Origin: Planctomycetota bacterium
GTDB lineage: Bacteria; Planctomycetota; GCA-002687715; CAIWVZ01
Assembly: GCA_044222185.1 (NCBI GenBank)
Contig: JBGANV010000001.1
Span: forward strand, 1,632,001-1,696,000
Direction of reading: 5' to 3'
Length of the DNA stretch: 64,000 nucleotides
Every line of letters begins with the position of its first letter. The stretch's first letter is position 1. Made by a program: the position numbers and the translations under genes. The notes under the pieces were generated by a model that was not told the DNA's origin, did not search any database, and saw only the letters and a program-made list of their open reading frames with translations. Of the stretch, positions 1 through 59,903 are shown piece after piece.

Positions 1-586
1 CGCAAGTCTCGAGGCCGGCGCCGACGTCGTGTGCTTGAGTGGCGACAAGATGCTGGGCGGCCCGCAAGCCGGGATCATCCTCGGACGCAGTGCTCTCGTG
101 AAGGAGTGTCGATCGAGCCCCCTCGCTCGCGCGTTCCGGATCGACAAGCTGCGCGTTGCGGCACTGGAAGCGACCCTCACGTTGTTTCTCGACCCGAAGA
201 CGCTCGACCTGACGCACCCGGTCACCGACATGCTCCGGCGCAAGCCCGCCGACCTGCGCACTCGGGCCGAGGCTCTCGTGCGCGCGGTCGCGGGGTGCTG
301 CCCGCGCGATACCGTGGCGACCATCGTTCCGACGGACTCCGAGGCCGGCAGCGGTGCGCTCCCCGCCCTGCCCATTCCTTCGCTCGCCGTGGCGATCACC
401 TCCCCGCGCATGAGCCCCGATGCGCTCGCGCGCGCCTTGCGCCTCGAGCCCACGCCGTTGTTCACGAAAACCCGGGACGGCCACGTGCTTCTCGACGTCC
501 GCACGCTCGCCGACGACGAGGTGGAACTTGCAGCGACAGTCCTCGCGAGCGCCCTCCGCCGCGATTCGCGCGCGTCGGCGAATTGA
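1..586 (+). CDS. selA: L-seryl-tRNA(Sec) selenium transferase, 3' part (runs off window start)
   Basis: PLP-lysine motif SGDKMLGGPQAGII, then PLARAFRIDKL, EAGSGALP and LLDVRTL; directly followed by tRNA-Sec. Confidence 0.95.
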   Translation, partial: ASLEAGADVVCLSGDKMLGGPQAGIILGRSALVKECRSSPLARAFRIDKLRVAALEATLTLFLDPKTLDLTHPVTDMLRRKPADLRTRAEALVRAVAGCCPRDTVATIVPTDSEAGSGALPALPIPSLAVAITSPRMSPDALARALRLEPTPLFTKTRDGHVLLDVRTLADDEVELAATVLASALRRDSRASAN

Positions 587-611
587 ATCTTCGGGAGCCG
601 GCCGCGATACT
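583..611 (+). promoter_or_regulatory. putative sigma70 promoter for selC
   Basis: TTGAAT (583-588), 17 nt spacer, GATACT (606-611), 13 nt before the tRNA 5' end. Confidence 0.5.
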
Positions 612-624
612 GCGCCCTCCACCC

Positions 625-719
625 GGGAGTGGATCGGTTCCTGGTGGACCGCCCGGTCTTCAAAACCGGTGTGACCGGCAAATAACCGGTCTGGTGGGTT
701 CGATTCCCATGCACTCCCG
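625..719 (+). tRNA. selC: tRNA-Sec (anticodon UCA)
   Basis: Acceptor GGGAGTG/CACTCCC + discriminator G; 6-bp D stem CGGTTC/GGACCG; anticodon stem CCGGT/ACCGG with TCA at 660-662; long variable arm GACCGG/CCGGTC; T loop TTCGATT; CCA not encoded; adjacent to selA. Confidence 0.96.
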
Positions 720-3937: not shown

Positions 3938-3963
3938 TGTCGAAGAACCACGAGGAGTGTGAG

Positions 3964-5484: not shown

Positions 5485-5509
5485 GGAAATCAGGCAACCG
5501 AACCGATCG

Positions 5510-5553
5510 AACGACGCGCGGACGGGCCAACCGGACGCGCGTCGCGTCGTTTT
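5510..5553 (+). terminator. possible terminator hairpin
   Basis: AACGACGCG (5510-5518) / CGCGTCGTT (5543-5551) inverted repeat with a short T run; loop is large. Confidence 0.3.
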
Positions 5554-5705
5554 CGGGGTGGATCGTGGCCGGTTACCGGTTCGACAGGTACCCCACCGCG
5601 GAAAGAACGAGCGCGGAGAACGCGACATTTCGACGAAGTCCCGACGAGCACGTGGTTCGAAGCGTCACTCTTGCGGCGTCCCGGATCGATGCCCAGGAGT
5701 GCGAA

Positions 5706-14359: not shown

Positions 14360-14980
14360 GTGGTCGTCGCCGTCATGCAAGCCCCACCCGTTCGGAGAGT
14401 GACGTTGGACCGGTCGACGTCGAAGGACGAGACGCTCGAGCGCGCCCGAACCGGCGACGCCCGCGCCTTCCAGGAACTCGTCCGCCAATACCTCCCGCGG
14501 GTTCTCGCCCTCGCCAAGGGCCTCGTCGGGGGCATGCTCGACGCCGAGGACGTGGCGCAGGAGGTCTTCTTCAAGGTCCACCAGAAGCTGGCGACCTTCC
14601 GCGAGGACTCGTCCTTCTACACATGGCTCTACCGCGTGACGGTCAACACGGCGACGGACCTGCGGAAGCGGCGCCGCTCCCAGGCGCTCCAGCAGACGGA
14701 GGATTTCGAGCGGCTGCCGATCGCCGACACCCGCGACGAACCCCTCGTCGCGTTGTCGCGAACGGACCTGGCGGCCGAAGTCCGCTCGGCCATGGCGGAG
14801 ATCCCGACGAAGTTCCGGGCCGTGCTGGTCCTGCGTGAGATCGAACAACTGTCCTACGAGGAGATCGCAGCCACGATGAAGTGCTCGATCGGAACCGTGG
14901 AGAGCCGCCTGTTCCGGGCCCGCGCCCGGCTCAAGGCGATTCTCGAGCGGCGTCTCGAGGTCAAGCGAGGACACCCATGA
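14360..14980 (+). CDS. ECF RNA polymerase sigma factor (RpoE-like)
   Basis: DAEDVAQEVF, FYTWLYRV, LSYEEIA...GTVESRLFRAR; AGGAG RBS. Confidence 0.93.
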   Translation: MVVAVMQAPPVRRVTLDRSTSKDETLERARTGDARAFQELVRQYLPRVLALAKGLVGGMLDAEDVAQEVFFKVHQKLATFREDSSFYTWLYRVTVNTATDLRKRRRSQALQQTEDFERLPIADTRDEPLVALSRTDLAAEVRSAMAEIPTKFRAVLVLREIEQLSYEEIAATMKCSIGTVESRLFRARARLKAILERRLEVKRGHP

Positions 14981-38505: not shown

Positions 38506-38542
38506 TCCGTGATCGCGCGCTCTGCGCGCAACGGACGACCGC

Positions 38543-38579
38543 GCACGGGCACGGCAAGAGGCCGTGCCCGTGTTCGTTT
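38543..38579 (+). terminator. intrinsic terminator after paralog 1
   Basis: 12-bp perfect stem CACGGGCACGGC/GCCGTGCCCGTG, loop AAGAG, followed by TTCGTTT. Confidence 0.75.
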
Positions 38580-38906
38580 GGGGCCGACGCCATCGATGAG
38601 AGCTGGCGAGCGCCACGATCGGCCGCGGGCTGCAGGCCGAATCAGCCGCAGCCAACGCCCCACGCAATCCCCTGCGTGACAGCGACTTGGGCCGACGAAC
38701 CCCGCCGGTCCATCGACGCCGCGGACACGAGATCGTCCAAAAACTCCCCCGCCAGATTCCGCAGTGGCATCCCGCGCCGCGCAACTCCTGAGCTGGTAAG
38801 CTCCGCGCCCAATCGCGGCGATCGCCTGCAATTCACGGCGCCCGCGTCTCCATTCAACCGACGCGTGAGCGCGCGTCGATGCCCCCATTACTGGAGTGCC
38901 TGAACC

Positions 38907-40130
38907 ATGTCCACGCGGCCCATCGTCCTCGCGGGCCTTCTTGCTGCGGTGCTCAACGCCCAGCAAGCCGGCGACGCCAACCGGAACTACACGATCAACG
39001 GCAATGGTGCGCTCGCGATCTCAGCGTGTCTTCCGACGATTGCCTACGACTCCGTCCCTATTCCCGGCTCGATGACGAACGTCTACACGACGTCAGATGC
39101 GGCCGCGCCGGTGATCTGGGCGACGAGTCCGACGTTCACCGTCCCAGGCCTCGGCTTCGGCCCGAACGAGGCGAACCTCGGTACGCCGCCGAGCTTCGCG
39201 AACGTGACCTTCATCGGCGACGGAACGCAACCCGGCTTCCTCAACTCCGTGTTTCGAACGGATTCGAACACCGGGCCGACGCACGCATTCACGCTCGCGG
39301 TGCCGACGAACCCGCTCATGCTGAACCTGGTGGAACGGTTCTGCATGATCCACTTCTCGCCGACCTCGTCGGTTGGAGCGTGGGTCTCGCAGACGCACAG
39401 CGTCGGATTCGGGTTCACTCACAACCCGCCACCCCCGCCAGGTTCGGTGGATCCGTTTCTCGCCATCGGCAACGCCGCTCCGGCGCCGAATGCCGCGCCG
39501 ATTGCCGGCGCGGGTGACGACTCTTCGACTCCCGTCGCGCTGGGCTTCAGCTTCACGTTCTTCGGCGTGAACTACAGCACGCTCTACGTCGGGTCGAACG
39601 GCTACCTGACGTCGACGCCATTCCAGGCATTCACCGAATCGGTCGCGGCATTCACCGGTGGACCCGCGCCCAACAACGCGGCGAAGATCTGTGCGTTCTG
39701 GGACGACTTCAACCTGCTTGCTGCCGGCGCCGCGGGGAACGCGAGCCTGAAGTTCGCGACGGATGGAGCGTCGCAATGCGAGTTCAGTTGGGTGGCGGTT
39801 CCCGAGTTCGGCAGCATCTGGTCCGCGACGAACCAGAACAACTTCAAGGTCACGCTGACGCAGGGTGCCGGCGCGGGCACCGTGACGATCGACTTCGGCC
39901 TCATGGCCGCGCTGGACGGACTCGTCGGTCTGAGTCCCGGCGGGAACCCCGGCCTCGCGACCGCGCAATCCGTGAACTTCAGCTTCGGTCCGGCCGGATC
40001 GAACAACCCCATCTGCACGGGCCGCGCCGTGTACGAGATGTTCGTCGGCGGGTCGGCCCCGAACGACCTGGCCGGTCGCTCGATCACGTTCCTCTTGGAC
40101 TCCACGGGAACGCCCATCTATTGGCAGTGA
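38907..40130 (+). CDS. exported protein with NIDO-like domain (paralog 2)
   Basis: Colinear with paralog 1 over its whole length; GDD...LGFSFTFFG...GSNGYLT...FWDDF. Confidence 0.8.
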   Translation: MSTRPIVLAGLLAAVLNAQQAGDANRNYTINGNGALAISACLPTIAYDSVPIPGSMTNVYTTSDAAAPVIWATSPTFTVPGLGFGPNEANLGTPPSFANVTFIGDGTQPGFLNSVFRTDSNTGPTHAFTLAVPTNPLMLNLVERFCMIHFSPTSSVGAWVSQTHSVGFGFTHNPPPPPGSVDPFLAIGNAAPAPNAAPIAGAGDDSSTPVALGFSFTFFGVNYSTLYVGSNGYLTSTPFQAFTESVAAFTGGPAPNNAAKICAFWDDFNLLAAGAAGNASLKFATDGASQCEFSWVAVPEFGSIWSATNQNNFKVTLTQGAGAGTVTIDFGLMAALDGLVGLSPGGNPGLATAQSVNFSFGPAGSNNPICTGRAVYEMFVGGSAPNDLAGRSITFLLDSTGTPIYWQ

Positions 40131-40154: not shown

Positions 40155-41102
40155 TCAATATCCGAGGGCTGGATCCACGTTCAGGCGCGGCGTCCGTCCG
40201 GCGCGGATGTCCGCGAGGGAATCGAGGAAGCTCCCCGCCGCCTCGCTCACCTCGGTGAGCGCGGAGCAGTGCGGTGACACGATGATGCGAGGGTCGCGCC
40301 ACAGTGGCGAGTCGGCGGGCAACGGCTCCGTCTCGAACACGTCCAGTGCTGCCCCGGTCAGGCAACCCGCGTCCAACGCCGCAACCATCGCGTCGTGGTC
40401 GACCACCGCGCCGCGAGCGACGTTGATCAGGAACGCGCCGCGACAGCCGCCGAGAACACGGGCATCGAACGACCGCCAGGTCTGCTCCGTCAGGGGCAGC
40501 GTGAGGATCACCCATCGCGCGGTCGAGAGCACGGCTGCCACATCGGTGAACGGGACGACCGTCTCGAATGCACCGGAAGCTCGGCCGGTGCGCGAAACCC
40601 CAACCGCGCGCGCCCCGGCGCCGCGGAACAGGCGCCCGACCGCGGCCCCGATGTCACCGGTCCCGACGACGACCGCCGTAGTTCCCTCGAAGTCGATGGG
40701 ATCGAGCTTCTGCCACCGTGCGCCAGCCTGCTGCATGAGCAGTTCAGGCATGCGCTGCGAGACGAACAGCGCGCGCGCGAGGCAGTACTCGGCGATGCGC
40801 ACGCCGAACCGGCCGCGTGTCCGGGTGAGGATGCGTCCCGTCGCCCATGGCTTGCGGAACAGGAATGCATCGACGCCCGCCCCGGTGGATTGAACCCAGC
40901 GAATCGATCCGAGCCCGCAGGACGGAGGCCGAAATCCGACGAACGTATCCGCCCAGCTCACGTCCTCGGGAGTGACGCTCTCGAGTGCACGCGCCCGGAA
41001 GGACAGCTCGGGGACGCGCGCCGCGACGAAGCGCGCCAGTTCCTCGCCGAGACGGTCCGCGACGAGGATCCGGTCCGGAGAGAACGCCGCAGGACCGGTC
41101 AC
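40155..41102 (-). CDS. D-2-hydroxyacid dehydrogenase family protein
   Basis: GTGA overlap with the preA stop; GAGVD, VVGTGDIG, INVARG, DVFETEP, SPH. Confidence 0.88.
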   Translation of the reverse strand: MTGPAAFSPDRILVADRLGEELARFVAARVPELSFRARALESVTPEDVSWADTFVGFRPPSCGLGSIRWVQSTGAGVDAFLFRKPWATGRILTRTRGRFGVRIAEYCLARALFVSQRMPELLMQQAGARWQKLDPIDFEGTTAVVVGTGDIGAAVGRLFRGAGARAVGVSRTGRASGAFETVVPFTDVAAVLSTARWVILTLPLTEQTWRSFDARVLGGCRGAFLINVARGAVVDHDAMVAALDAGCLTGAALDVFETEPLPADSPLWRDPRIIVSPHCSALTEVSEAAGSFLDSLADIRAGRTPRLNVDPALGY

Positions 41103-42508
41103 GAGCCCCGGCCCTCCGCCGCCGGCGGCGAAGCGTCGTGCCTCCGGCGAGTCTCTTCGAGCCCGCCCGGCACGAAATCCCCGGAGCGTCGGACGCGATC
41201 GTCCCACGTCTCGGGGATCCTCGTCACCCGGTCCTCCACCATCGTGATGCATCCCGCCACCGGGCACACGAGCGCACACAGGTTGCAACCGATGCACTCG
41301 GATTCGTCGACGTGGGGAACGAAGCGTTCCGGAAACCCGGCAGGCGCGACGACAGGCCGCGCGGGCACGTCCTTTGGAACCCTCGTGTGACCGGCGGCAC
41401 GTGCCTCCGCCTCCGTGCGACCCGGAAGATGGATGCACTGGTGCGCTCCGTCGAGGCACGACACGTAGCAGAGCTGGCACCCGATGCAGGTCTGTGCATC
41501 GATGCGGGCCACGACGCGGTAGTTCAGGTCGAGTGCGCCCCAATCGACGAACGCGCCGACGGCGCGGCCGCGCAGGGAAGCGACGGACGGAATCCCGTGA
41601 TCGTCGAGGTAATCGCCGAGGCCGTCGATCATCTCGGAAACGATGCGGAAGCCATGGTGCATGACGGCCGTGCACACCTGCACGCAGCCAGCTCCCAGCG
41701 CGATGAATTCCGCAGCGTCGCGCCAGTTGGAGATTCCACCGATCCCCGACAACGGGACGCGCGTGTTCGGATTCCGCGCGAGCTGTCCCACCATGTGAAG
41801 GGCGATCGGCTTGATCGCAGGGCCGCAGTAGCCACCGTTCGTCGACGCCCGATCCACCCGCGGAAGCGGAACGAGTCGATCGAGATCGACTCCCATCAGG
41901 GATTTCACCGTGTTGACGAGGGCGATCGCGTGGGCACCGCCTTCGACTGCGGCCTCCCCCGGCTCGTTGATGTCCGCGACGTTCGGGCTCAGTTTCACGA
42001 TGACGGGAAGCGAAGAGTGCTCCACGACCCAGTGCGTGATCTCGGCGAGGAGACGCGGATCCTGCCCGACGACCGACCCCATTCCGCGCTCGCACATGCC
42101 GTGGGGACAGCCGAAATTCAACTCCAACCCGTCGGCTCCCGTGTCGACGGCGCGTGCCACGAGCTCACGCCACTCGGCCTTCGTCTCCGTCATGAGGGAC
42201 GCGACGACCGCGTGCTTCGGGAACCGCCGTTTGACCTCGGCGATCTCCCGCAGGTTGTCGGCCAGCGGGCGATCGGTGATGAGCTCGATGTTGTTGAGTC
42301 CCGCGACGCGCGCACCGCCGAAGTCGACGCTCGCCAGGCGACTCGACACGTTCACGATCGGGTTCCCGATGGTCTTCCAGACCGCGCCCCCCCAACCGGC
42401 GTCGAAGGCCCGCATCACCTGCCCAGCCGTGTTCGTCGGTGGCCCACTGGCGAGCCAGAACGGGTTCGGCGCCTTGATTCCGGCGAAGTCGACGCTGAGA
42501 TCAGCCAT
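41099..42508 (-). CDS. preA: NAD-dependent dihydropyrimidine dehydrogenase subunit PreA
   Basis: NPFWLASGPPT, GLNNIELI, LELNFGCPHG, GGYCGPAIKPIAL; two CxxCxxC Fe-S motifs. Confidence 0.95.
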   Translation of the reverse strand: MADLSVDFAGIKAPNPFWLASGPPTNTAGQVMRAFDAGWGGAVWKTIGNPIVNVSSRLASVDFGGARVAGLNNIELITDRPLADNLREIAEVKRRFPKHAVVASLMTETKAEWRELVARAVDTGADGLELNFGCPHGMCERGMGSVVGQDPRLLAEITHWVVEHSSLPVIVKLSPNVADINEPGEAAVEGGAHAIALVNTVKSLMGVDLDRLVPLPRVDRASTNGGYCGPAIKPIALHMVGQLARNPNTRVPLSGIGGISNWRDAAEFIALGAGCVQVCTAVMHHGFRIVSEMIDGLGDYLDDHGIPSVASLRGRAVGAFVDWGALDLNYRVVARIDAQTCIGCQLCYVSCLDGAHQCIHLPGRTEAEARAAGHTRVPKDVPARPVVAPAGFPERFVPHVDESECIGCNLCALVCPVAGCITMVEDRVTRIPETWDDRVRRSGDFVPGGLEETRRRHDASPPAAEGRGS

Positions 42509-43862
42509 GGGACACGCCTCCGAGAGTGCGCGAGATGTCTCGGGCAGCGACCTTCGCCTCCGCTACGGCGTTCACGACCTCACGCCCGCCGTTCACGCAA
42601 TCGCCGGCGGCCCAGACGCGTGGGTTGCCCGTGCGATGCGTCGCCGGGTCGACGACGATTCGGCCGCGCGGGTCCAGAGCCACGCCGGAGAACGCCAGCG
42701 CGAGCGCCGCCGCCGAGCGGTCCTGCCCGACGGCGACGACGGCGAGATCGCAGGGAATCCGCTGAGGGACGGGAGCGCCGGGGCCGAATCCATCGGAGGG
42801 AAGCACGTCCACGCTGGTGATGGGCGACGACTCGGACGCGCCGTGTCGATTGAACGCCGACACGCGCCGGCGATCGAGGATGACCACGCCCGCGTGGCGT
42901 GCCGCGTCCACTTCGTGGCGGAAGGCGGGAAGCTCGGACTCCGATCGCCTGCAGATGAGCGACACGTCGGGGACCCCTACGCCTCGAAGCTGGCGGACGA
43001 CGTCGACGGCCGTGTTGCCCCCTCCGATGACGACGGCTCTGCGCAGCCCGACGAATGCCGACCGCTCCGGTCCGCTCGTCTTCAACCGCTCGATGAACGC
43101 CGTCGCTCCGATCACGCCTGGCAGGTCCTCGCCCGGGACGCCGAGTCGGCCGTCGCCGCCGAGGCCGACTCCGAGGAACACGGCATCGAACTCTCGGACG
43201 AGGTCAGCCGCTCCAAGGCTCGGTTCCCCCGCCCGCATGGCCCCGACTTCCACGCCAAGCCGGAATTCCACACCCAGCGAGCGCACCCACTCGGCTTCGA
43301 TGCGCGCATCCTCGGCAGGAAGCTTGTAGACGGCGATCCCGTGGGTGTTGAGTCCGCCCGGTTGCGCGCGCTTCTCGAAGATCACCACCTCGTGGCCATC
43401 GAAGCGGAGTTGCGCTGCGATCGCGAGTGACGCAGGTCCCGCGCCCACGCAGGCCACGCGGCGGCCGGTCGCGGGGCCAGGCGCCTTCGCGTGCCATCCG
43501 GCGCGGACGAAGGGCTCGGTCGCCCAGCGCTGGAGCCGACCGATCTCGATCGGTGGCTTCTCCCATGCCTGGTAGACGCACGCGCCCGCGCACAGGACTT
43601 CGACGGGACACGTCCGCCCGCACGACCATCCCAGCGGGTTCGCATCCAGGATCAGGCGTGCCGCACCCTTCCGATTGCCCGTGGCGATGCGTCGAATGAA
43701 ACCGGGGACGTCGATCTCCGTCGGACAGGCCTTCACACATGGCGCATCGGCGCAGTAGAGACAGCGCAGGGCTTCGGCGACGGCGTGGCCATCGCCAAGC
43801 AGCGGTGCGTGGTCCGGAATCGGCGGCTCGGAGCGCGCGTCGGGCGTGCTGGCAGTCGTCAT
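42501..43862 (-). CDS. preT: dihydropyrimidine dehydrogenase subunit PreT (GltD-like)
   Basis: EALRCLYCADAPCVKACP, VGAGPAS, IGGGNTAVD, AAGDCVNGG; adjacent to preA. Confidence 0.92.
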   Translation of the reverse strand: MTTASTPDARSEPPIPDHAPLLGDGHAVAEALRCLYCADAPCVKACPTEIDVPGFIRRIATGNRKGAARLILDANPLGWSCGRTCPVEVLCAGACVYQAWEKPPIEIGRLQRWATEPFVRAGWHAKAPGPATGRRVACVGAGPASLAIAAQLRFDGHEVVIFEKRAQPGGLNTHGIAVYKLPAEDARIEAEWVRSLGVEFRLGVEVGAMRAGEPSLGAADLVREFDAVFLGVGLGGDGRLGVPGEDLPGVIGATAFIERLKTSGPERSAFVGLRRAVVIGGGNTAVDVVRQLRGVGVPDVSLICRRSESELPAFRHEVDAARHAGVVILDRRRVSAFNRHGASESSPITSVDVLPSDGFGPGAPVPQRIPCDLAVVAVGQDRSAAALALAFSGVALDPRGRIVVDPATHRTGNPRVWAAGDCVNGGREVVNAVAEAKVAARDISRTLGGVSHG

Positions 43863-43921
43863 CGGCGGCGGATTCTACGCGTCGGCCGACGGAGCCCCGA
43901 GACCCGGAATGACGGCCGGAA

Positions 43922-45298
43922 CTACCGCGTCGACCGTTTCACGAACGCTCCACGACCCGGCCGACCGATGAACCGGCCGCCCTCGACGATCACCTCGCCG
44001 CGCGAGAGCACCACGTCGGGCGACCCTTTGAGTTCGCGGCCTTCATAGGGGTTGTAGTCGACCCGCATGTGGTGCGTCCTCGCGCTGACGACCTGCTTGC
44101 GCTCCGGGTCGAACACGACGACGTCGGCATCGCTCCCCGGCGCCAGCGTGCCCTTTCTCGGGAACAGGCCGAAGATCTTCGCGGGCGACGTGGAAGTCAG
44201 CTCGACGAATCGGTTCAGCGAGATGTTCCCCCCGAGGACGCCGCCGTCGTGCATGAGCGCGAGGCGGGTCTCGATCCCGGGTGCACCGTTCGGGATCTTG
44301 CTGAAGTCGTCCTTCCCGAGGGTCTTCTGGTCCGCCATGCAGAAGGGGCAGTGGTCCGTCGCCACGACCTGCAGGTCGTTCAGCCGCAGGCCGCGCCACA
44401 GGTCCTTCTGCTTCGCGCGGTCGCGCAACGGCGGGCTCATGACGTACTTCGCTCCGTCGAAACCGGGCTCGTCGTAGTTCTCAGTCGACAGGAAGAGGTA
44501 CTGCGGACAGGTCTCTGCGAAGGCCTCGATCCCGCGATCGCGAGCTTCCGCGACCTTCTCCAGCGCCTCGGCCGCCGAGAGGTGGACGATGTAGACCGGC
44601 GTTCCGGCGACCTCGGCGAGGCACAGAGCGCGGTGTGTCGCTTCCGCCTCCAGTCGTGGGGGACGCGTCAGCGCGTGCCACTTCGGCGCCCGGTGGCCTC
44701 TCCGCAGCGCCTGCTCGACGAGCACGTCGATCACGGGACCATTCTCCGCGTGCATGCAGATCATCGCGCCGAGTTCGCCCGCCCGCTGGAGCGTGCGGAA
44801 GATGGACGCGTCGTCCATGAGGAACACGCCGGGATAGGCCATGAACAGTTTGAACGACGTGATCCCCTCGCGAACCATGGCGCCCATCTCGGCGCGGAGC
44901 GCGTCCGTGGATTCGCGCATGATCATGTGGAAGCCGTAATCGATCACGGCCTTCCCCTCGGCCTTGCGCATCCACGTTTCGAACGCCTGGCGCAGACTTT
45001 GCCCGAACTCGGGAATGGCGAAGTCGACGATCGTCGTCGTTCCACCGAATGCAGCCGCCACGGTCCCCGTGTGGAAGTCGTCCGCCGAGTTCGTGCCCCC
45101 GAACGGCATGTCGAGGTGCGTGTGGACGTCGATGCCGCCGGGAAGCACGTAGCGCCCCGTCGCGTCGATGGTGCGGTCCACGGTGACGGTGTCGAACGAA
45201 CGACCGATGGCCTCGATCGTCTCGCCGTCGATGAGCACGTCGGCCCGACACCGGTCGACGGCCGTGACGACCGTCCCGCCCTTGATCAGTGTGCGCAT
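43922..45298 (-). CDS. hydA: dihydropyrimidinase
   Basis: GGIDVHTH, GITSFKLFMAY, HAENG, YIVHLS, ETCPQYL, TDHCPF. Confidence 0.96.
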   Translation of the reverse strand: MRTLIKGGTVVTAVDRCRADVLIDGETIEAIGRSFDTVTVDRTIDATGRYVLPGGIDVHTHLDMPFGGTNSADDFHTGTVAAAFGGTTTIVDFAIPEFGQSLRQAFETWMRKAEGKAVIDYGFHMIMRESTDALRAEMGAMVREGITSFKLFMAYPGVFLMDDASIFRTLQRAGELGAMICMHAENGPVIDVLVEQALRRGHRAPKWHALTRPPRLEAEATHRALCLAEVAGTPVYIVHLSAAEALEKVAEARDRGIEAFAETCPQYLFLSTENYDEPGFDGAKYVMSPPLRDRAKQKDLWRGLRLNDLQVVATDHCPFCMADQKTLGKDDFSKIPNGAPGIETRLALMHDGGVLGGNISLNRFVELTSTSPAKIFGLFPRKGTLAPGSDADVVVFDPERKQVVSARTHHMRVDYNPYEGRELKGSPDVVLSRGEVIVEGGRFIGRPGRGAFVKRSTR

Positions 45299-45311
45299 GT
45301 CGTCCCCTCGC

Positions 45312-46184
45312 TCATGGCAGTTGTTGGGTCAGCGGACCGTACGACTCCGGCCTCCGATCGCGGAAGAACTGCCACGTGCGGCGGACTTCCTCGATCATGC
45401 CCATGTCCATCTCGGCGACGACGAGTTCGTCGCGGTCCTCGGACCCCGTGGCGAGGAACTGGCCCCGTGGATCGCAGAAGTACGACGTGCCGTAGAACTT
45501 CCCGATGTTCCACGGTGGCTCCGTGCCGACGCGATTGAGTGCGCCGACGAAATATCCGTTGGCGACCGCGTGCGCCGGCTGCTCGAGTTTCCAGAGGTAC
45601 TGCGACAGGCCCGCCACCGTCGCCGACGGGTTGAAGACGATCTCGGCGCCGTTCAGCCCGAGGATGCGCGCCCCTTCCGGGAAGTGGCGGTCGTAGCAGA
45701 TGTAGACGCCGATCTTCGCGTACTTCGTCTGGAAGGTCGGGTAGCCCAGATTGCCCGGCTTGAAGAAGAACTTCTCCCAGAAGCCCGACGTGTGTGGAAT
45801 GTGGCTCTTGCGGTACTTGCCCAGGTACGTGCCGTCGGCGTCGATCACCGCGGCGCAGTTGTAGTAGAGGCCGGCCATCTCGCGCTCGTAGACGGGCACG
45901 ATCAGCACCATGCGGTGCTTGCGCGCCAGCTCGGCCATGCGCGCCGTCGTCGGGCCCGGGACCTCCTCCGCGAGGTCGCACCAGCGCGAGTCCTGGCTCG
46001 GGCAGAAGTACGGCGCATTGAAGACCTCCTGCAGGCAGAGGATCTGGACGCCTCGCTTCGCCGCCTCGTCGATGAAGGGCAACGTCTTCGCGACCATGGC
46101 GTCGCGAATCGCGTCGACGGCCCCCGTCGGATCGAACGACGGGACGCTGCACTGCACGAGACCACCAACGACCTTTCGCGGCAT
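45312..46184 (-). CDS. beta-ureidopropionase (nitrilase family)
   Basis: CLQEVFN, YRKSHIP, FWEKFFFKPG, YICYDRHFPEG triad; first gene of the pyrimidine cluster. Confidence 0.92.
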   Translation of the reverse strand: MPRKVVGGLVQCSVPSFDPTGAVDAIRDAMVAKTLPFIDEAAKRGVQILCLQEVFNAPYFCPSQDSRWCDLAEEVPGPTTARMAELARKHRMVLIVPVYEREMAGLYYNCAAVIDADGTYLGKYRKSHIPHTSGFWEKFFFKPGNLGYPTFQTKYAKIGVYICYDRHFPEGARILGLNGAEIVFNPSATVAGLSQYLWKLEQPAHAVANGYFVGALNRVGTEPPWNIGKFYGTSYFCDPRGQFLATGSEDRDELVVAEMDMGMIEEVRRTWQFFRDRRPESYGPLTQQLP

Positions 46185-46286
46185 GAGAGACTCCGGATGA
46201 GCGGCGAGTCTAACGCCGCCCCGGTGAGCCTCCGACACGGGCGTGCCACGGGAGCCGCACGCCCGCGCAGGGCTCGCGGCCGCCGC

Positions 46287-49200
46287 TCACTTGGGCCGCG
46301 ACGTGGGACGTGTGTCCGTCGTGTTCGCGAGCTGCCAACGCTGCGTGGGCCAGCGATCGCACACGAAAACCAGTGCGACGCCCTGTTCCGCGGCGTCGGC
46401 CGGCACCTCGATGCTCACGACGGGAGAGGTCTCCCCGGGCGCGATCGAGGCCACCGTGTGCACGACCTCGTACGCGGGCTCCGATTCCCCGAGCGCAAGC
46501 CCCGCCAGGATCCGCCCAGGACCCGTCGGTTGATCGCCGTCGTTCTGCAACGCGAACTGGATACGCGCATGGTGCGTTGCATCGGGCGGCAGAGCGACGA
46601 ATCCGATCGGTGTGATCCGAGGCCGACGCGTCCGAACCCGGACCGACTTCAGCGTGACGCCCGCGTTCCTGGACTCGACGCGGATCTCCACCCTCTCGTC
46701 CGCAGGGCGCGACTCCGTCGACGGGGCGAGGATGCGCGTGATGCGGAGCCTCCGCTCGACGACTCCATCGATCACACCGATGGTGGGCACAGGCTCCACG
46801 AGTACACCAGGCGCCCCGTTCGTGACGGCGCTGACGTGGACCTCCAATGCAGGGTTGGCCGTCGTGTCGTGGATGAAGAGAGAAATCTCCGCACCATCCC
46901 GGTCGCAGTCGTCCAGTTCCACGTCCGTGGCGTCCACCGTGAGCGTCGTCGACCCGCCTGCCGGCGGCGCGGCGTACGTCACGGCACCCTCGGCGCCAGG
47001 CTGCGACGTCACGATGCGACTCCAGCCCGAGTGCGTCGCCTGGTCGCCACTCCGCAGCATCCAATGGCCGTCCCGCGTCACCGCGCCCGAGAGCGTCCTG
47101 GACGTGGCCTCGCGCGGCAGCACCCATTGCAACGTCCCGTCCTCGTGACCGCTGACGAACATGGCCAAGCCGCGCGAGCAGGCCGTCGTGGAGCCATGCC
47201 CGAGGAATGCCCGGCGTCGCGACGCGTCGTCCACCCACACGCTGCCATCGGCGGACACCGAGTCGAGGGCAGTCGCGCCAGCGAGGGCGACGTGGACGAC
47301 GGCCGACGTGTGTCGCCGCTCCTGGAACGTCGTTCGGCGCATGGCCAGATCGCAGACGGCGACCGTACCGTCGACGCATCCGACCGCGAGACGCGCGCCG
47401 TCAGCGGAGAACGAGAGCGAGGAGACGGCGTCGCGCAGCGTGTCCGTCTGGAAGAGCAGCGCGCCGGTCGCGACCTCGATCACGACGGCGCTCCCCTCGC
47501 CACCCACGGCGAGCCGCGTGCCGTCGTCCGAACACGCGAGGACGTGCACGGCGCCGACGGGAACGGGCAGGTCCAGGAGACGAACGGCTGCGGAATCCAC
47601 GTCGACGATTGCAACGCGGCCGCGCGAAAGGCCCACGGCCACGCCCGCCTTCGCGCCGACGCGTGCCAGCGCCGTGAGGCGATCCTGGATGACGAGCGAC
47701 TTCCGCGGCATACCCGTCCTGGCGGCGAACGTTGCGAGCGTCCCGTCCGCCGTCGCGGCGACGACACGATCGTCAGCTTCGAGGTGAGCCAATCCGACGA
47801 TCTCCGCGTCGTGGTCCATCGTGTGGATCCAGGCCAGCCGCTGGTGGGGCGGCCCGTCCCGCTGCTCGGTGAACCAGAAACACGAGAGCACTCCGTCCCC
47901 GCTCCCTGCGACGACGCTTCCCTGGTGACTGAGGACCTCGACGGCGGTGATCGGGCGGATGACCTCGGGCAGCGTGCGCAGGACTCGCCCCGTGAGGTTG
48001 TCCAACAGTTTGATGGTGCGATCCGACGAGCAGGTCGCGATGACGCGGCCGTCCGGGCGCGGAGACGCCGCGTAGGCGGTCAACAGATGCGGCCGCACGG
48101 TCCAAAGCGGCGTGCCGTCCTCGGAAGACCACGCGCGAATCGTGCGGTCGGCGGAGGCGGACGTGATGACGCGGCCGTCGGGGGAGATGCCAATTCCCTC
48201 CACGCTTCCCTCGTGCCCTTGCAGCGTGCGGACCAGTTCCCCGCCCGGCAGCGCCCAGACCTGGATGAGTCCGCTCAGCGACCCTCCGGCGATCCAGGAA
48301 GCATGGGGACCGAACGCGATCGTGTGCACGTGATCGAGGGCGGGCCCACGGTGGATCGTTCGCACGAGACGGCCGTCGTTGGGATCCCACAGGCGCACCG
48401 TGTTGTCGGCTGCGGCGCTGGCGAGCGTGGTGCCATCACGCGAGAAGACGAGTGCCTTCAGGTCGGAGCGATGGCCCTCGAGCGTGCGCAGGAGTTCGTG
48501 GCTTTCGACGTCCCAGATGCGAACGGTCCGGTCTGCCGACCCGGACACGATCCACCGACCGGTCGGATCGAACGCCACGGCGGAGACGGGAGCCTGGTGG
48601 CCAACGAGCGTCGCCACGCGGCGGCCGTCGTCGACGCGCCACAGGCCCACCGTGCCATCCGCCGAGCCCGTCGCGATGAACGTCGACCGGGGATGGAACG
48701 CCACCGACGTCACCGTCTGCGTGTGCCCGACACAGACGACCTTCACCAGGCCCGACTCGGCGTCCCAGATTCGCGCCGTCTGGTCGCCCGAAGCCGATGC
48801 GAGAAGGCGGCCGTCGGGACTCCAGCACACGGCGAATACGTCCGCCTGATGACCTCGATCGAGGTCGTAGGCTGGTGCGGGCTCCGACTCCCAGAGGCAC
48901 GCCGTTCCGTCGACGCCGCAACTCACGAAGTGCTTGCCGGTCGGCGAAGCCGCGAGCGCCGTGACGCCGCCGTTGTGCGCGCGCCAGGCTGCGGTTCGCG
49001 TCCACGCCTCCCCGCTCGCGCCGTCGGACCGCATCCACGTCGCAACGAGGCCGTCGGCCGTGCCCGTCGCGGCATGGCGGCCATCGTCCCAGCCTGCCGC
49101 AGCACTCACCCAGCTCGTATGCCCGCCGAGCGGAGCGCCGCCCACGCCGTTTCGCCACGGGATCGCGCGCTTGTCCGAACCGCCCGTGAGATAGCCGGCG

Positions 49201-49859
49201 CCGCTGAGCGGCGCGATCGCGTTCACGGGCCCCTCGTGCGCCTTGCGTCGCACGGGCGCGGAAGCTCCGTCGAGCGCATGCTCGATCACGCTTCCATCCT
49301 CGCATCCAGCGACGAGACCCGCAGACGCGGAGCCGCTGCCGACGAACGCCAACGCCGTGCCGACGACCGGTGCCTTCGCCACGACCGTCTTCGCGGCCCC
49401 GGACGCGGCGTCCCACAACGCGATGCCCGAGGTCTCCGACGCCGTCGCCAGCCACGCTCCCGTCGAATCCACGGCAAGCTTCACCGGACCGTCCGTCGCA
49501 ACCTGTATGACGACGGGATCGGCCTTCGCCGCCACGTCGATGATGCGCACGACGCCGTTCGAGAGCCCGACCGCAACGCGACCGGACGGCAACCGCGCGA
49601 GTGACGTCACGGCCCACTCGAATCGCACCTGCGGCTCCGCCTGCGATTCGGTCACCGTCCACACGACGATCCGCCGATCGACCGCGAGCGCGACGTGATC
49701 CGAATCCAGCCACACGGCGTCAACCACGGGCGCTTCGAAGGGCCCCACGGCCCTGATCCGCGCCATCTGCGGTGCCCGCTCCTCCACTGCGACCGCGACT
49801 GCGGGGAACTGCCCGACGACCGCGCACGTCAGCGAGAGGAATGCAGCGGCGACCTTCAG
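46287..49859 (-). CDS. large WD40-repeat protein with C-terminal Ig-like domains; probable CTG start giving a signal peptide (alternative starts GTG 49787, ATG 49766)
   Basis: Many GH...V..VAF.PDG..LAS.S.D.T.R.WD repeats; the reading frame stays open upstream to CTG 49859, encoding MKVAAAFLSLTCAVVGQ. Confidence 0.85.
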   Translation of the reverse strand: MKVAAAFLSLTCAVVGQFPAVAVAVEERAPQMARIRAVGPFEAPVVDAVWLDSDHVALAVDRRIVVWTVTESQAEPQVRFEWAVTSLARLPSGRVAVGLSNGVVRIIDVAAKADPVVIQVATDGPVKLAVDSTGAWLATASETSGIALWDAASGAAKTVVAKAPVVGTALAFVGSGSASAGLVAGCEDGSVIEHALDGASAPVRRKAHEGPVNAIAPLSGAGYLTGGSDKRAIPWRNGVGGAPLGGHTSWVSAAAGWDDGRHAATGTADGLVATWMRSDGASGEAWTRTAAWRAHNGGVTALAASPTGKHFVSCGVDGTACLWESEPAPAYDLDRGHQADVFAVCWSPDGRLLASASGDQTARIWDAESGLVKVVCVGHTQTVTSVAFHPRSTFIATGSADGTVGLWRVDDGRRVATLVGHQAPVSAVAFDPTGRWIVSGSADRTVRIWDVESHELLRTLEGHRSDLKALVFSRDGTTLASAAADNTVRLWDPNDGRLVRTIHRGPALDHVHTIAFGPHASWIAGGSLSGLIQVWALPGGELVRTLQGHEGSVEGIGISPDGRVITSASADRTIRAWSSEDGTPLWTVRPHLLTAYAASPRPDGRVIATCSSDRTIKLLDNLTGRVLRTLPEVIRPITAVEVLSHQGSVVAGSGDGVLSCFWFTEQRDGPPHQRLAWIHTMDHDAEIVGLAHLEADDRVVAATADGTLATFAARTGMPRKSLVIQDRLTALARVGAKAGVAVGLSRGRVAIVDVDSAAVRLLDLPVPVGAVHVLACSDDGTRLAVGGEGSAVVIEVATGALLFQTDTLRDAVSSLSFSADGARLAVGCVDGTVAVCDLAMRRTTFQERRHTSAVVHVALAGATALDSVSADGSVWVDDASRRRAFLGHGSTTACSRGLAMFVSGHEDGTLQWVLPREATSRTLSGAVTRDGHWMLRSGDQATHSGWSRIVTSQPGAEGAVTYAAPPAGGSTTLTVDATDVELDDCDRDGAEISLFIHDTTANPALEVHVSAVTNGAPGVLVEPVPTIGVIDGVVERRLRITRILAPSTESRPADERVEIRVESRNAGVTLKSVRVRTRRPRITPIGFVALPPDATHHARIQFALQNDGDQPTGPGRILAGLALGESEPAYEVVHTVASIAPGETSPVVSIEVPADAAEQGVALVFVCDRWPTQRWQLANTTDTRPTSRPK

Positions 49860-50908
49860 CGCAAGCCCTCCAGGCAGCGCTTGAGGAACCCGAGCCGCGC
49901 GTCCACCTCCCGGCTCACGATCGTGTCCGGGTGCGCCTTCTTCAGAGCTTCCAGGTCTTCGATCACGTGTTCCCCGTCGTGAAGCGTCTGGAATCCACGA
50001 GTGGCCACGGACCGGACGTCCTTCTGCGCCTGGATGAGCCGGCGCGTCGTTTCGCTCCCCGCCATGGCTTCCTGAACGTTCTTCACGCGCTCCGCGAGAG
50101 GACCGCCTGCGACGACACGGACGATGGACTCGCAGCGCTCCGTCGCACCGAGCCAGTCACCCGCACGATAGGTTGCCTCGGCCGCACGAACCCGATTCTC
50201 GATCAACTGCTCGACCCAGCGGGTCACGTCCTGCATCGAGACCGTGGACGACGTCGCGTCCGTCGTGCGCGACTCGGCTGGCCCGGACTCGGCCGTCGAC
50301 GAACCCGCAGCGCGCGACTCGGCGCCTCGGCCTGCCAGCGTGCGTGCCGCCAGGAGATCGTCGGCCAGGATCGCCGTGCGAATCTCCTGTGTCTCCGCGG
50401 GCCAGTCGAACATCGGGACGGGCACCGCCCCCGGCAACGCCGCGCGGATCATCTCCTCGTTCAACCCCGATGGATGGCCCGCGTAGGCCACGTTGCCCGT
50501 CGCGTCCACCAGGACGGCGAACGGCAGGTCGAACACGTTGAATGGTCCCGCCAGTTCGAAGTCCGCGTCATAGGCGTAGGCGTAGCGCACCTTGCGCAGT
50601 TTCACCCACTGCTCCGTGTTCTCCTTGTAGCCGCCGGTCACGCCGACGATCGAGAGGCCCCGCCTGCCGTACTTGTCCTGCAAGGCGTTCAGCTTGGGAA
50701 CCTCTTCACCGCAAGGCGGTCACCAATACATGAAGAACTCGAGGAGCAGGGTCCGGCCCCGGAACTCCGCGAGTGTCTTCGCGCGCGTGTTGGCCCAGTC
50801 GTGCAGCCGTGCCGGGGGCAATGGGCTGCCGACGAGTTGCGCGGGCATGGCACAGGTCACCGCGATCACCGCGGCGCAAACGGCCGCTCCCTTCCGAAAA
50901 CCGATCAT
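49856..50908 (-). CDS. exported TlpA/redoxin-family selenoprotein (U63, UxxC) with helical C-terminal domain
   Basis: ORFs 50720-51073 and 49856-50683 share a frame and are separated only by TGA 50722-50720, giving GRTLLLEFFMYW-U-PPCGEEVPKLNALQDKY; cis-Pro DLPFAVLVDATG; selA/selC present. Confidence 0.9.
50682..50719 (-). promoter_or_regulatory. candidate bacterial SECIS element
   Basis: GG(U)GAA-GAGG-UUCCC hairpin at +10..+24 after UGA, with bulged U and G-rich loop; alternative fold AAGAGGUUC/GAACGCCUU; folded by eye. Confidence 0.5.
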
Positions 50909-51024
50909 GCCGACGTCCTTCCGTGGTTCGAGCGCGACCGTGGAGGCAGTCCGGGTGCCGAGTCGACCCACAGGCGGGGATTGTAGGGAGGCAGCCGCGC
51001 TCCGATCAACGTAAGCTTGCCGCC

Positions 51025-51963
51025 ATGCCGGAACTTCCGGACGTCGTCGTCTACGTCGAAGCGATCGAAGCACGGCTCGCCGGGCGCGTCATCGAACGCG
51101 TGCGCGTCCTGAGCCCGTTCGTCGTGCGGACGGTCGAACCGCCGATCCTCGCGCTGGAGTCGCGCCGGGTCCTCGGGGTGCGACGACTCGGGAAACGCAT
51201 CGTGATCGCAGTGGAAGGGGACCTGTTCCTCGTCGTTCACCTGATGATCTCCGGGCGCTTCCGGTGGGAGCGACCCGACGCCAAGGTCAACCGCCGGCTA
51301 TGGCTCGCGACGTTCACCTGCGAAACGGGGATGCTGGTGCTGACCGAGGCGAGCACGAAGCGACGCGCCTCGATCCACGTGGTCGACGGGGCGGCAGCAC
51401 TCGCGCTGCACGACCCGGGCGGCCAGGATGTCCTCATCGCGACGCAGGATTCGTTCCGCGCGGCCCTCCGGCGCGAGAACCGGACACTCAAGCGAGCGCT
51501 CACCGATCCGCGCCTCTTCGACGGCATCGGGAACGCGTACTCCGACGAGATCCTCCACGCGGCGCGCCTTTCGCCACTCGCGCTCACGCGTTCGCTCGAC
51601 GACGAAGAAGCCGAGCGGCTGCGCGTCGCGGCGACCGCGACGCTCACGCGCTGGACCCAGCGCCTGCGAACCGAAACCGGAGCCGACTTCCCGACGAAGG
51701 TCACGGCCTTCCGCCCGGACATGGCCGTCCACGGCCGGTACGGAAAGGCGTGCCCGGTCTGCGACACGCTCGTCCAGCGCATCGTCTACGCCGAGAACGA
51801 GGCGAACTACTGCCCCCGTTGTCAGACTCGAGGGAAGCTCCTCGCCGATCGTTCGCTCTCGCGGCTGCTCCACGAGGATTGGCCGAAGACGATCGACGAA
51901 CTCGAATCGCAGATGCCGGCCGCGACGCCCCAGATGCGAAATCGGCCTACGGGCGACCGCTGA
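51025..51963 (+). CDS. Fpg/Nei family DNA glycosylase/AP lyase
   Basis: N-terminal MPELPDV, RRLGK, H2TH GIGNAYSDEILH, zinc finger CPVC...CPRCQ. Confidence 0.93.
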   Translation: MPELPDVVVYVEAIEARLAGRVIERVRVLSPFVVRTVEPPILALESRRVLGVRRLGKRIVIAVEGDLFLVVHLMISGRFRWERPDAKVNRRLWLATFTCETGMLVLTEASTKRRASIHVVDGAAALALHDPGGQDVLIATQDSFRAALRRENRTLKRALTDPRLFDGIGNAYSDEILHAARLSPLALTRSLDDEEAERLRVAATATLTRWTQRLRTETGADFPTKVTAFRPDMAVHGRYGKACPVCDTLVQRIVYAENEANYCPRCQTRGKLLADRSLSRLLHEDWPKTIDELESQMPAATPQMRNRPTGDR

Positions 51964-57494: not shown

Positions 57495-59903
57495 TCAGCG
57501 CGGGCCGTCGATGACGGCCTCACGCAAGCCCTTCGGTGACGCCGAAAGACCGACTGCCAGCCGGGTCTGAGCACCGGCCGTGGACTCGAACCGGAGCCAT
57601 CGCGCGGGATGTCCTGCGACGGTGACGATGAGCGTGTGCTCGCCTTCCGCGACGTTGCGGATTCGTGCCGCGCCGTTCGTGATCGCGAAAGGCTCGCCAT
57701 CGAGAATCGCGAGTCCCCGACCGCACGCCCGTCCCTCGCCGTCGGTGACATCCACACGGATCTCGCCATCGGGGAGGCACGCGTGATCGGGCGGCGTCGA
57801 CGAGGTCCACAGGACGAGAGGCAAGCCCTCGCCATCCCGGATCGCCATCGGAGTCCCGGGCGGAACCCGTGTCGGCGCGATGCTCGCCACGCCCTCGGCG
57901 TCGGTACGCCGACTGACGACACCGCGCTCGGTTCCGAACTCGACGGAGGCGTCCGCGACCGGTGCGCCCCTCGAGTCGACGACGACGATCGCCCGCATGG
58001 GCGCCTCGCGGTGCGCCGGAACGGCAGGCCAACGCGCTGCGACGTCCAGGCATTCGCCAGGCCGCCGGAGGCCGCGCACGGCGTGGGTCACACGCTCGCT
58101 TCCGCAGCCGAGCGCGATCAGCGGCTCGCCGTCGAGAGGCAACGGGATCGGACGTTCGTGCAGGACGTCCTCCGTCACGTCGCGCTCCCGCGCGCCGACG
58201 ACGAGACTGGCCCAGGCACCGTCCGGCGCGTCGTTCCCGCATCGCACCGTCACGCGAGGCCGCTCGAAGAGCTCCAGGGATACCATCCTCGGTCGAAGCC
58301 CTGGCTCCACGGAGAGTGCGTCAGGCGCGATCGCGAACGGCGTCTCCGCGACGTCGTCGTTTCGGATCTCGTAGGTTCCGACCGGCAGCCACGCGACCGC
58401 CGTGGCGTCGTCCTCCACCTGCGTTCGGACGACCGCGCCGTCCGGACACGCGATGAGAACGGTGAGCCCCCGGGTCAGCGGTGCGCCGGCGGACTTCGAG
58501 CGGAACTCGACCCGGGCCGAAGCGCCGTCGTTGGTCCCAGGTGAGCGCTCGCCCGCCTCCGCGGCCGGACGCCGCAGAACGACCTGGATGATCCCATCGT
58601 CGCCCATCGCGCCAGCGAAGCGCGTGACGCCGGGTGCGAACCCGGCGCCGCGGACGATCGCGGAGTCGGCCTCCGCATCCACGCCGGAGAGCCCGGCCAG
58701 CCCGTCGGAATTCGTCACGGCGGTCACGGATGTGAGGACCTCCATGGCGCCCGTGACGGCGTCGACTCGAACGTCCTGGACCGGACGTCCCAACGTGTCG
58801 GTGACGCGCAGGTGCACGAGTCCGGCCCGACGCATCCGGACCGGGAACGGAGCGATGGACCCCGAGCTGACCACGGTGGCGTACCCCGAAGCCTGGGCCA
58901 TGCATGCGAGGGGGCCGGCCGGGACATCCGCGATCGACATCCGCAGCCACCCGTCGGCGCCCGAAACGGCCGTGCGCAGGACGTGTGGCGCATGCGCCCG
59001 CTCCGCCGGCTCCTCGATCACACTCAGCGCGGCGCCCGGAATCGCCACGCCGGTGACCGCGTCGACGACACGCGTGACGAGCGAGCGATGGCGACCGAGC
59101 TCATCCATGGGCCCGCTGCACGGGAACACGTCGTCGACGTCGCGCGCCTCGAGCACGCGCACCTCCGCCGCCCCGATGGGCTGGACGGAGATTGGAGGCT
59201 CGTCCTGCGTCGGCGTGGATCTCACGGGCTCGCCGGGTGAAACGACGCCTCGGCCGCTGGGCGAAGGTGTCCGATCCGTGCGTGCCGCGAGAATGGCACC
59301 ACCAATCCCGAGGATGGCGAAGGTCATCAGCGCGACCCGAACGAGCCCCACTGCCGCCACACCGACGGGCAGCGGCCTCAGGAGCAGGAACGCCCCGCGA
59401 CGCCGTCCCGGACCGAGCGTCGCGTCGAGTCGCGACCGCATGAGCGCCAATCCCCGCTTCAGGCGTGTGCGAACGGTTTCCGTGGGGATCCCCAGCGCCG
59501 CGGCGATTCGCCGCGGCGGAAGGTCGCGCTCGAACCGCAACAGGAGGACGTCTCGGTAGTGCGGGTCGAGTTGGAGCAGGGCCTCCACGACCTGACGGCG
59601 CACGGACTCACGCTCGGCGAGGTCCAGTGCCGATGGCACGCACTCGGGCCGTGCCGCGCTGCGCTCGACCTCCGCGCCGCGGCGGTGCCGGGCCGCCGCT
59701 CGCAGTGCAAAACGACCGGCCACGCGGGCAAGCCAGGCCTTCGCCGTCGCCGCGCGCAACGAGCCCTGGCGGATCAGGGCCAGCCAGGTGTCCTGCACGG
59801 CGTCGTCGCCGTCGCGATCCACCGCCATCCGCGCGGCGATGCGGCGCAGGAGTGCGTCGTGCGCGAGAAGCCCGTGGAGGTCGAGAAGCGGTTCGGTGGA
59901 CAT
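57495..59903 (-). CDS. ECF sigma factor with TM helix and long extracytoplasmic carboxypeptidase-regulatory-like extension
   Basis: DDAVQDTWL, AWLARVA, IAAALGIPTETVRTRLKRG; TM segment; VVDAVTGVAIPGA and VTDTLGRPV repeats. Confidence 0.88.
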   Translation of the reverse strand: MSTEPLLDLHGLLAHDALLRRIAARMAVDRDGDDAVQDTWLALIRQGSLRAATAKAWLARVAGRFALRAAARHRRGAEVERSAARPECVPSALDLAERESVRRQVVEALLQLDPHYRDVLLLRFERDLPPRRIAAALGIPTETVRTRLKRGLALMRSRLDATLGPGRRRGAFLLLRPLPVGVAAVGLVRVALMTFAILGIGGAILAARTDRTPSPSGRGVVSPGEPVRSTPTQDEPPISVQPIGAAEVRVLEARDVDDVFPCSGPMDELGRHRSLVTRVVDAVTGVAIPGAALSVIEEPAERAHAPHVLRTAVSGADGWLRMSIADVPAGPLACMAQASGYATVVSSGSIAPFPVRMRRAGLVHLRVTDTLGRPVQDVRVDAVTGAMEVLTSVTAVTNSDGLAGLSGVDAEADSAIVRGAGFAPGVTRFAGAMGDDGIIQVVLRRPAAEAGERSPGTNDGASARVEFRSKSAGAPLTRGLTVLIACPDGAVVRTQVEDDATAVAWLPVGTYEIRNDDVAETPFAIAPDALSVEPGLRPRMVSLELFERPRVTVRCGNDAPDGAWASLVVGARERDVTEDVLHERPIPLPLDGEPLIALGCGSERVTHAVRGLRRPGECLDVAARWPAVPAHREAPMRAIVVVDSRGAPVADASVEFGTERGVVSRRTDAEGVASIAPTRVPPGTPMAIRDGEGLPLVLWTSSTPPDHACLPDGEIRVDVTDGEGRACGRGLAILDGEPFAITNGAARIRNVAEGEHTLIVTVAGHPARWLRFESTAGAQTRLAVGLSASPKGLREAVIDGPR

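Follow-up and report, generated by a model that had tools for sequence, protein, structure and literature searches.

Translational coupling by termination-reinitiation has been described for bacterial gene pairs joined by a -4 ATGA overlap, and coupling was seen in 13 of 14 overlapping pairs tested, though it was partial in some and there were exceptions (PMC6728339). Initiation at CUG in E. coli reaches 1–2% of that at AUG (10.1101/063800), the fdhF transcript of Treponema primitia falls 3′ of its selenocysteine (Sec) UGA under selenium limitation (PMC3892789), and UxxC selenoproteins have been reported among Redoxin-family (PF08534) and thiol-disulfide isomerase-like (cd02966) proteins (PMC13188914). 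Coupling at -4 overlaps, CTG starts, selenium-dependent polarity and UxxC redoxin selenoproteins are each already known individually. Here we describe a locus in a 64,000-nucleotide stretch of Planctomycetota DNA (contig JBGANV010000001.1, positions 1,632,001 to 1,696,000; hereafter the window), where the gene for an exported redoxin selenoprotein is followed, through a CTGA overlap, by the gene for a large WD40-repeat protein. A full-text literature search, which covered main texts and few subscription papers, found no CTG start coupled to Sec read-through and no redoxin/WD40 pairing, and selenoproteome supplements could list the family. The word selenocysteine is missing from the accessible text of a 2025 review of coupling (PMC12548453), and the string “planctomyc” has 0 occurrences in the accessible main text of the UxxC report (PMC13188914).

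Judging from the signals around the overlap, the WD40 gene very likely starts at the CTG and encodes an exported protein. For the locus as a whole, the explanation towards which we lean is operon coupling through this CTG, with selenium sensitivity as a passive by-product; that WD40 expression depends on coupling, and would hence be selenium-sensitive, appears reasonably probable from the same analysis. The features of the locus are as follows.

46287..49859, minus strand: WD40 gene, 1190 amino acids (aa) from the CTG (domain search and structure model)
49856..49859, minus strand: CTGA overlap, with the CTG start at 49859-49857 and the TGA stop at 49858-49856 (sequence)
49866..49871, minus strand: Shine-Dalgarno (SD) motif GGAGGG in the last selenoprotein codons, partly paired in a local hairpin
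49812..49859, minus strand: predicted signal peptide MKVAAAFLSLTCAVVG, then Gln17 (rule-based test; counterpart in locus L015)
49764..49787, minus strand: rival starts GTG 49787 and ATG 49766
49856..50908, minus strand: exported redoxin/TlpA-like selenoprotein gene, 350 aa (Pfam domain matches, homologues)
50720..50722, minus strand: in-frame UGA, selenocysteine 63 (alignment to Cys homologues)
50692..50712, minus strand: candidate selenocysteine insertion sequence (SECIS) hairpin with a GAGG apical loop (minimum free energy, MFE, fold)
50980..51009, minus strand: sigma-70-like promoter match TTGATC-18-TACAAT, 5′ of the selenoprotein gene (consensus match)
2..719, plus strand: 3′ part of selA and tRNA-Sec(TCA) (SelA 7.4e-40)

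The last codons of the selenoprotein gene, which lies on the minus strand, are CTG GAG GGC TTG CGC TGA, and the WD40 frame from 49859 reads CTG AAG GTC GCC, the C of the overlap CTG being the wobble base of the last selenoprotein Arg codon, CGC. An initial annotation, made from the sequence of the window, had proposed this CTG as the start, and its description of the overlap holds: the WD40 frame is open upstream of the called GTG 49787 for 123 codons, up to the TGA at 50159, with no ATG, GTG or TTG between them; the CTG overlaps the selenoprotein stop as CTGA; GGAGGG stands at 49871-49866, with a spacer of 6 nt; and the protein, predicted at about 1190 aa, has 1190 aa from the CTG. It was also right that canonical overlaps occur elsewhere in the window, with ATGA at 14977, TTGA at 24314 and GTGA at 32777 and 41102 among the curated genes. 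Compared with -4 ATGA pairs (PMC6728339), the locus shows the same 4-nt overlap, provided that the CTG is the start, an SD within the upstream gene and a closed start region, but it has CTG in place of the canonical start codon and an upstream gene that needs UGA recoding. A scan of 45900-51200 returned no promoter or terminator match between the two genes, and the promoter match at 50980..51009 is unique within that span (shuffles 0.1 ± 0.3).

Read from the CTG, the N-terminus is (M)KVAAAFLSLTCAVVG-QFPAVAVAV, with alternative signal-peptide cleavage after A-V-A, at aa 23 or 25. We compared this start with all 1796 CTG triplets on both strands of the window, 50 of which have an SD 5-mer at 4–10 nt. 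A rule asking for a basic n-region, a hydrophobic h-region, small residues at -3/-1 and Gln at +1, all of which the 49859 leader has, is passed by 3 of the 1796 (two in the WD40 frame and one inside a genuine signal peptide), and 49859 is the sole CTG that combines it with an SD. This rule was framed with the case already in view; applied to the 40 other curated starts, it picks up 11, and at least 3 of those it passes over seem exported on inspection. Under the window codon model the added 24 codons score 5.5, compared with a median of 3.2 for the WD40 body, -12.7 and -4.8 for the other two frames across the extension, and -5.0 for the 24 codons preceding the CTG. Together with an ATG-initiated counterpart in a related locus (L015, below), the rule and the codon scores support the proposal of a signal peptide with +1 Gln in the extension. 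The CTGA overlap is uninformative by itself, because 30 of 61 full-length genes of the same selenoprotein family, among the matches listed, end in CTGA, and because an in-frame CTGA occurs by chance at window position 12206, where it has no SD and an ATG follows 24 nt further on.

By its sequence, the upstream gene genuinely encodes a U-P-P-C redoxin selenoprotein and belongs to a widespread Planctomycetota family. It starts at ATG 50908, with AAGGA at 7 nt, and its product consists of a predicted signal peptide (about aa 1–23, cleaved between M-P-A and Q), a thioredoxin-fold domain and a helical C-terminal domain. The protein matches AhpC-TSA (1.8e-15) and Redoxin (3.9e-13), with PF00578, PF08534 and PF13905 all above cut-off, and its nearest structures are ResA/TlpA. 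The motif W-U-P-P-C occupies aa 62–66; Sec63 falls opposite the first Cys of the WCxPC motif in alignments with Cys homologues, and TGA is present at this position in family loci among the matches listed. A HMMER search returned Cys-form homologues of 317–338 aa and many fragments that start just past the UGA, and a search of plasmids gave distant TlpA matches only. The thioredoxin fold, the Cys homologues and the export signal are shared with described UxxC selenoproteins of the TlpA/ResA/CcmG fold (PMC13188914), but the window protein adds the helical C-terminal domain and sits below every NCBIfam cut-off: the selenoprotein models NF041054, NF040769 and NF041382 do not reach theirs (41 vs 300 bits and 24 vs 120), NF041382 having no match to it at all. 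A low-complexity insert of about 23 Ser/Thr/Ala-rich residues at 50240-50330 (-) is absent from most homologues. The Sec machinery is present in the genome, since selA and tRNA-Sec lie in the window; selB and selD were not seen within it, and no convincing second case emerged when the window was scanned for further in-frame TGAs of the Sec type. The SECIS-like hairpin can form, with an MFE no better than that of shuffles, and the invariant G22-U23 of its alignment doubles as a Val codon.

A DNA motif scan of species genomes, which detects TGA forms carrying its motif only, gave at least 118 matches in at least 117 loci, mostly titled Planctomycetota and including the genera Engelhardtia and Rohdeia; long flanks are available for 79 loci (L001-L079), and 38 loci span 630 nt or less. 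They hold at least 61 full-length family genes in at least 60 loci. The closest homologue among the matches listed (L081 1-630 (-), DASPNK010000502.1) is 55–56% identical over the redoxin domain and has the same M-Y-W-U-P-P-C-G-E-E. One locus (L012 1500-2750 (-)) carries a tandem pair of family selenoprotein genes, 19 nt apart. A second, shorter redoxin group with F-F-G-F-W-U-x-P-C and no helical C-terminal domain also occurs in Planctomycetota (L003, L004, L007, L068, L072, L075, L084, L086, L094, L095, L108, L113 and L115), and similar motifs were seen in Obscuribacterales (L045 and L069).

Among these loci a WD40 gene adjoins the selenoprotein gene in 1 of at least 117, L015 (NZBC01000001.1; tblastn, 79 loci with long flanks). 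Its selenoprotein, also U-P-P-C, is the best-scoring full-length homologue among the matches listed (214 bits) and falls with that of the window into the same 10-row subclade (Shimodaira-Hasegawa-like approximate likelihood ratio test 86; quick tree, 125 columns), of which L015 is the sole other member with flanking DNA compared. By our arithmetic, the chance that the WD40-bearing locus coincides with the subclade locus is about 1/60. The L015 WD40 gene (2376-5531 (+)) starts at ATG, encodes 1051 aa and begins MIRRFMSCVLLLAAWAGA-QE, a predicted signal peptide ending A-G-A before the Gln, but it is divergent from the selenoprotein gene. In the orthologue comparison called for by the initial annotation, L015 has the pair, an ATG start and a predicted signal peptide but not the tandem overlap. 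Another gene of this locus (5544-6540 (-)) is deiodinase-like, contains an in-frame TGA (G-S-F-T-U-P-P-F), has an N-terminus of the exported type and converges on the WD40 gene, which thus lies between two probable selenoprotein genes.

The two WD40 proteins are probable orthologues by sequence. They are collinear, with 29–30% identity over about 940 residues, and a repeat-idiosyncrasy test, which gives weight to deviations from the WD40 consensus that two proteins have in common, taken in order and one repeat at a time, places the partner first in either direction when the gap cost is 2 (17.6 vs 8.5 ± 2.3) and at rank 1–4 of 119 in 7 of 8 settings. Several results weigh against orthology: the partner has rank 10 in one setting of the same test, ranks 56 and 81 of 119 by raw BLAST and 11 of 119 by best-register ratio; a test based on rare words was null; and no alignment is obtained between the two C-terminal regions. 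Four motifs unique to the two proteins were not counted, having been chosen from their own alignment.

Elsewhere in the family, the gene that follows the selenoprotein gene lies on the same strand in 26 of the 61 listed cases, on the opposite strand in 31 and outside the covered DNA in 4; the 57 next genes listed, 56 of them scanned as separate neighbours, fall into numerous unrelated families. Of the 61 other family genes among the matches listed, 0 have an SD ahead of the -4 position. The divergent order in L015 means that coupling is not conserved and that the pair does not need it. Together with the unrelated neighbours in other loci, this contradicts the earlier suggestion that the two genes form a selenium-coupled system by design, and a conserved selenium switch is not supported by these sequences. 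Two closely related loci (L051 and L070) have an ATGA overlap into an unrelated YdjC gene. In L057 (JAJRTL010000263.1), the gene after the family selenoprotein (4051-4632 (-)) carries an AAA_28 domain, whose profile position 1 corresponds to residue 9 counted from the CTG of a CTGA overlap, the first GTG lying one codon after that CTG; this gene may need a CTG or ATC start at the stop, where there is no SD, and may be a second non-canonical re-initiation behind the same selenoprotein family.

The WD40 protein comprises the signal peptide, a linker, propeller blades at about aa 64–925 and beta-rich C-terminal domains at about aa 990–1167; there are roughly 20 blades, which would form about three propellers. 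The full-length model has a mean predicted local distance difference test (pLDDT) score of 64.8, with a lone low-confidence helix at aa 2–14 and low-confidence beta domains after 990. For the C-terminal part there is no Pfam match, and CARDB-like Atlas leads score 0.80 or less, under the tool threshold (across the Atlas searches with the WD40 protein, leads were generic WD40 or CARDB-like and all below 0.9); its 287 aa fold poorly as a single sequence (pLDDT 49.7), the fold has no match in the PDB at E<=0.001, and a homologue search with residues 860–1190 returned the protein itself only, among 8000 candidates. A two-sequence profile listed 120 proteins: the window protein, P0157 (near-identical to the L015 protein and excluded from the comparators) and 118 generic WD40 proteins. 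The generic long matches are 25–40% identical, most being named as cytoplasmic NACHT/kinase-type. With bacterial multi-WD40 proteins of the NACHT-, kinase- and caspase-linked kinds the window protein shares the repeats at this level of identity, but it lacks their N-terminal enzyme or NTPase domain and has a predicted signal peptide and beta-rich C-terminal domains instead.

The initial annotation had also credited the protein with many Cys and proposed it as a possible redox client of the selenoprotein. Bacterial proteins ordinarily contain about 1% Cys. The window protein has 14 Cys in 1190 residues (1.18%) and no CxxC; the median of the 118 other WD40 proteins is 0.56%, and 16 of them have a higher share than the window protein. 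As the Cys content is not high, the client idea rests on a wrong premise, and 0 of the 14 Cys are conserved in the L015 protein. A role as client of a periplasmic thiol-disulfide oxidoreductase is not supported by the sequence.

In the explanation that we favour, an exported U-x-x-C redoxin gene and an exported multi-propeller WD40 gene would form a two-gene operon, presumably co-transcribed, in which ribosomes terminate at the selenoprotein stop and re-initiate at the CTG, aided by GGAGGG, by analogy with known -4 pairs. Most initiation would be by re-initiating ribosomes, because CTG is weak and the site is structurally closed. As the stop is reached only by ribosomes that have decoded UGA63 as Sec, a shortage of selenium should reduce WD40 output, both by loss of coupling and by polarity. 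The principle would be that of T. primitia fdhF, in which failed decoding of the Sec UGA lowers downstream expression, but there the effect is on transcription within the selenoprotein gene, whereas here it is proposed for translation of a separate, non-selenoprotein gene (PMC3892789). Such dependence is expected of any gene coupled behind a selenoprotein, which makes it a passive property. The arrangement may have arisen in this lineage once the two genes had become tandem neighbours, and the overlap CTG, at a silent wobble position (CGN-TGA), may simply set a low level. As they are neighbours in two genomes, a joint role of redoxin and propeller can be inferred; both probably cooperate outside the cytoplasmic membrane, with the propeller as a scaffold or substrate-binding partner rather than a disulfide client.

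An internal start at ATG 49766 or GTG 49787 would instead give a cytoplasmic protein with no signal peptide, the hydrophobic leader being due to chance or vestigial. Both codons are canonical, GGAGGAG ends 12 nt upstream of ATG 49766, a database protein of 1159 aa begins there, and the names of most long WD40 matches point to the cytoplasm; but the spacing is long, the motif is made by V-E-E codons, GTG 49787 has no SD ahead of it, and the intervening 24 codons are coding-like and signal-like. With a predicted signal peptide on the L015 protein and CARDB-like C-terminal leads, we hold this start to be quite improbable. The CTG itself could be an artefact or a lesion, since any base at 49859 is silent for the upstream Arg and the codon can thus arise by silent drift or base-call error: a miscalled base, or a recent change of CGG, CGA or CGT to CGC, would have damaged a GTGA, ATGA or TTGA start, leaving a gene that is in truth canonical or decaying. 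A single contig provides the sequence of the locus, CGC is preferred among Arg codons (125 of 257 in six genes) and is the last codon in 21 of the 61 listed family genes, the other -4 overlaps of the window use ATG, GTG or TTG, and the L015 counterpart uses ATG. Against this, the frame is unbroken over all 1190 codons and its codon use is normal, bacterial annotations include CTG starts (10.1101/063800), and the L057 gene may also need a CTG or ATC start at the stop; we regard such an origin as unlikely.

A real CTG start could also be used mostly de novo from GGAGGG, or UGA63 could be read by Cys or Trp misincorporation, and in either case output would be independent of selenium. The SD is strong and well spaced, its hairpin is ordinary for the GC content (z 0.63), and among tested pairs bioBF is uncoupled and menDH is about 40% de novo (PMC6728339). 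De novo initiation at CUG is, however, as weak as noted above, and the CTG site is among the most closed starts in the window: its opening energy of 21.5 kcal/mol, compared with a median of 11.65 for 40 other starts, is exceeded by 1 of the 40, the GTGA overlap at 41102. This alternative is about as unlikely as a miscalled or drifted codon. More speculative is a selected selenium switch, in which the weak CTG is kept so that a redox-client propeller is made only alongside the Sec enzyme. Weak codon, SD and occlusion are what strict coupling needs, the genes adjoin in two genomes and both proteins are predicted to be exported, but the divergent order in L015, the missing SDs and frequent opposite-strand neighbours in the family (31 of 61) and the cysteine record leave it very improbable. 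Coupling through the CTG, with passive selenium sensitivity, remains our preferred explanation, and the following results weigh against it. Rival starts GTG 49787 and ATG 49766 have high opening energies as well (26.1 and 22.0), so that the CTG site is not cleared for de novo initiation rather than specially locked; a tandem start at exactly the CTG position is confirmed by no homologue among the loci listed; 91 aligned rows show no consensus fold and no covariation for the candidate SECIS; and in E. coli fdhF selenium limitation brings no drop in downstream transcript, while Cys misincorporation at a Sec codon is possible (PMC3892789).

Most predicted exported proteins of the window have Gln at +1 after the signal peptide (starts at 3964, 5706, 20846, 24314, 25257, 30103, 34342, 37288, 38907, 50908, 52034, 54051, 57479 and 60440). 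The same residue follows the predicted cleavage site in many exported proteins under the Q-rule for signal peptidase I substrates, described as Bacteroidetes-specific; the phylum Planctomycetota has no mention in the accessible main text of that paper (PMC5837995). A Q-rule in the present Planctomycetota lineage may be undescribed. After the WD40 gene, on the same strand, lie a carbon-nitrogen hydrolase gene and three more genes (41099-46184 (-)); they begin about 100 nt past the WD40 stop, with no terminator match between, and could share its transcript and polarity. Those three genes we take to resemble dihydropyrimidinase and PreT/PreA. The window further contains an extracytoplasmic function (ECF)-type sigma factor whose long fused C-terminal part carries carboxypeptidase-regulatory-like domains (57495-59903 (-)), and two tandem paralogous exported proteins whose N-terminal motifs are near-identical after A-Q-Q-A-G (37288-40130 (+)).

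In the databases, the WD40 entry lacks its signal peptide and the selenoprotein entry is split at the UGA, a reminder that automatic gene calling overlooks exported proteins whose start is a CTG within a stop/start overlap. Known coupling and polarity already lead one to expect the regulatory principle, and if the coupling holds, the locus would be a clean natural test case in which selenium controls a non-selenoprotein gene purely by translation. A stronger proposal, that the redoxin subclade works with a dedicated exported triple-propeller partner whose synthesis is gated by Sec read-through through an obligately re-initiated CTG, is doubtful on present sequences; if true, it would be a protein-free natural translational selenium switch on a non-selenoprotein gene. 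The new lead suggested by these comparisons is a redoxin subclade that adjoins an exported multi-propeller protein in two genomes, and this repeated redoxin/WD40 adjacency would be a first hint at the function of a Planctomycetota selenoprotein family that is widespread but uncharacterised.

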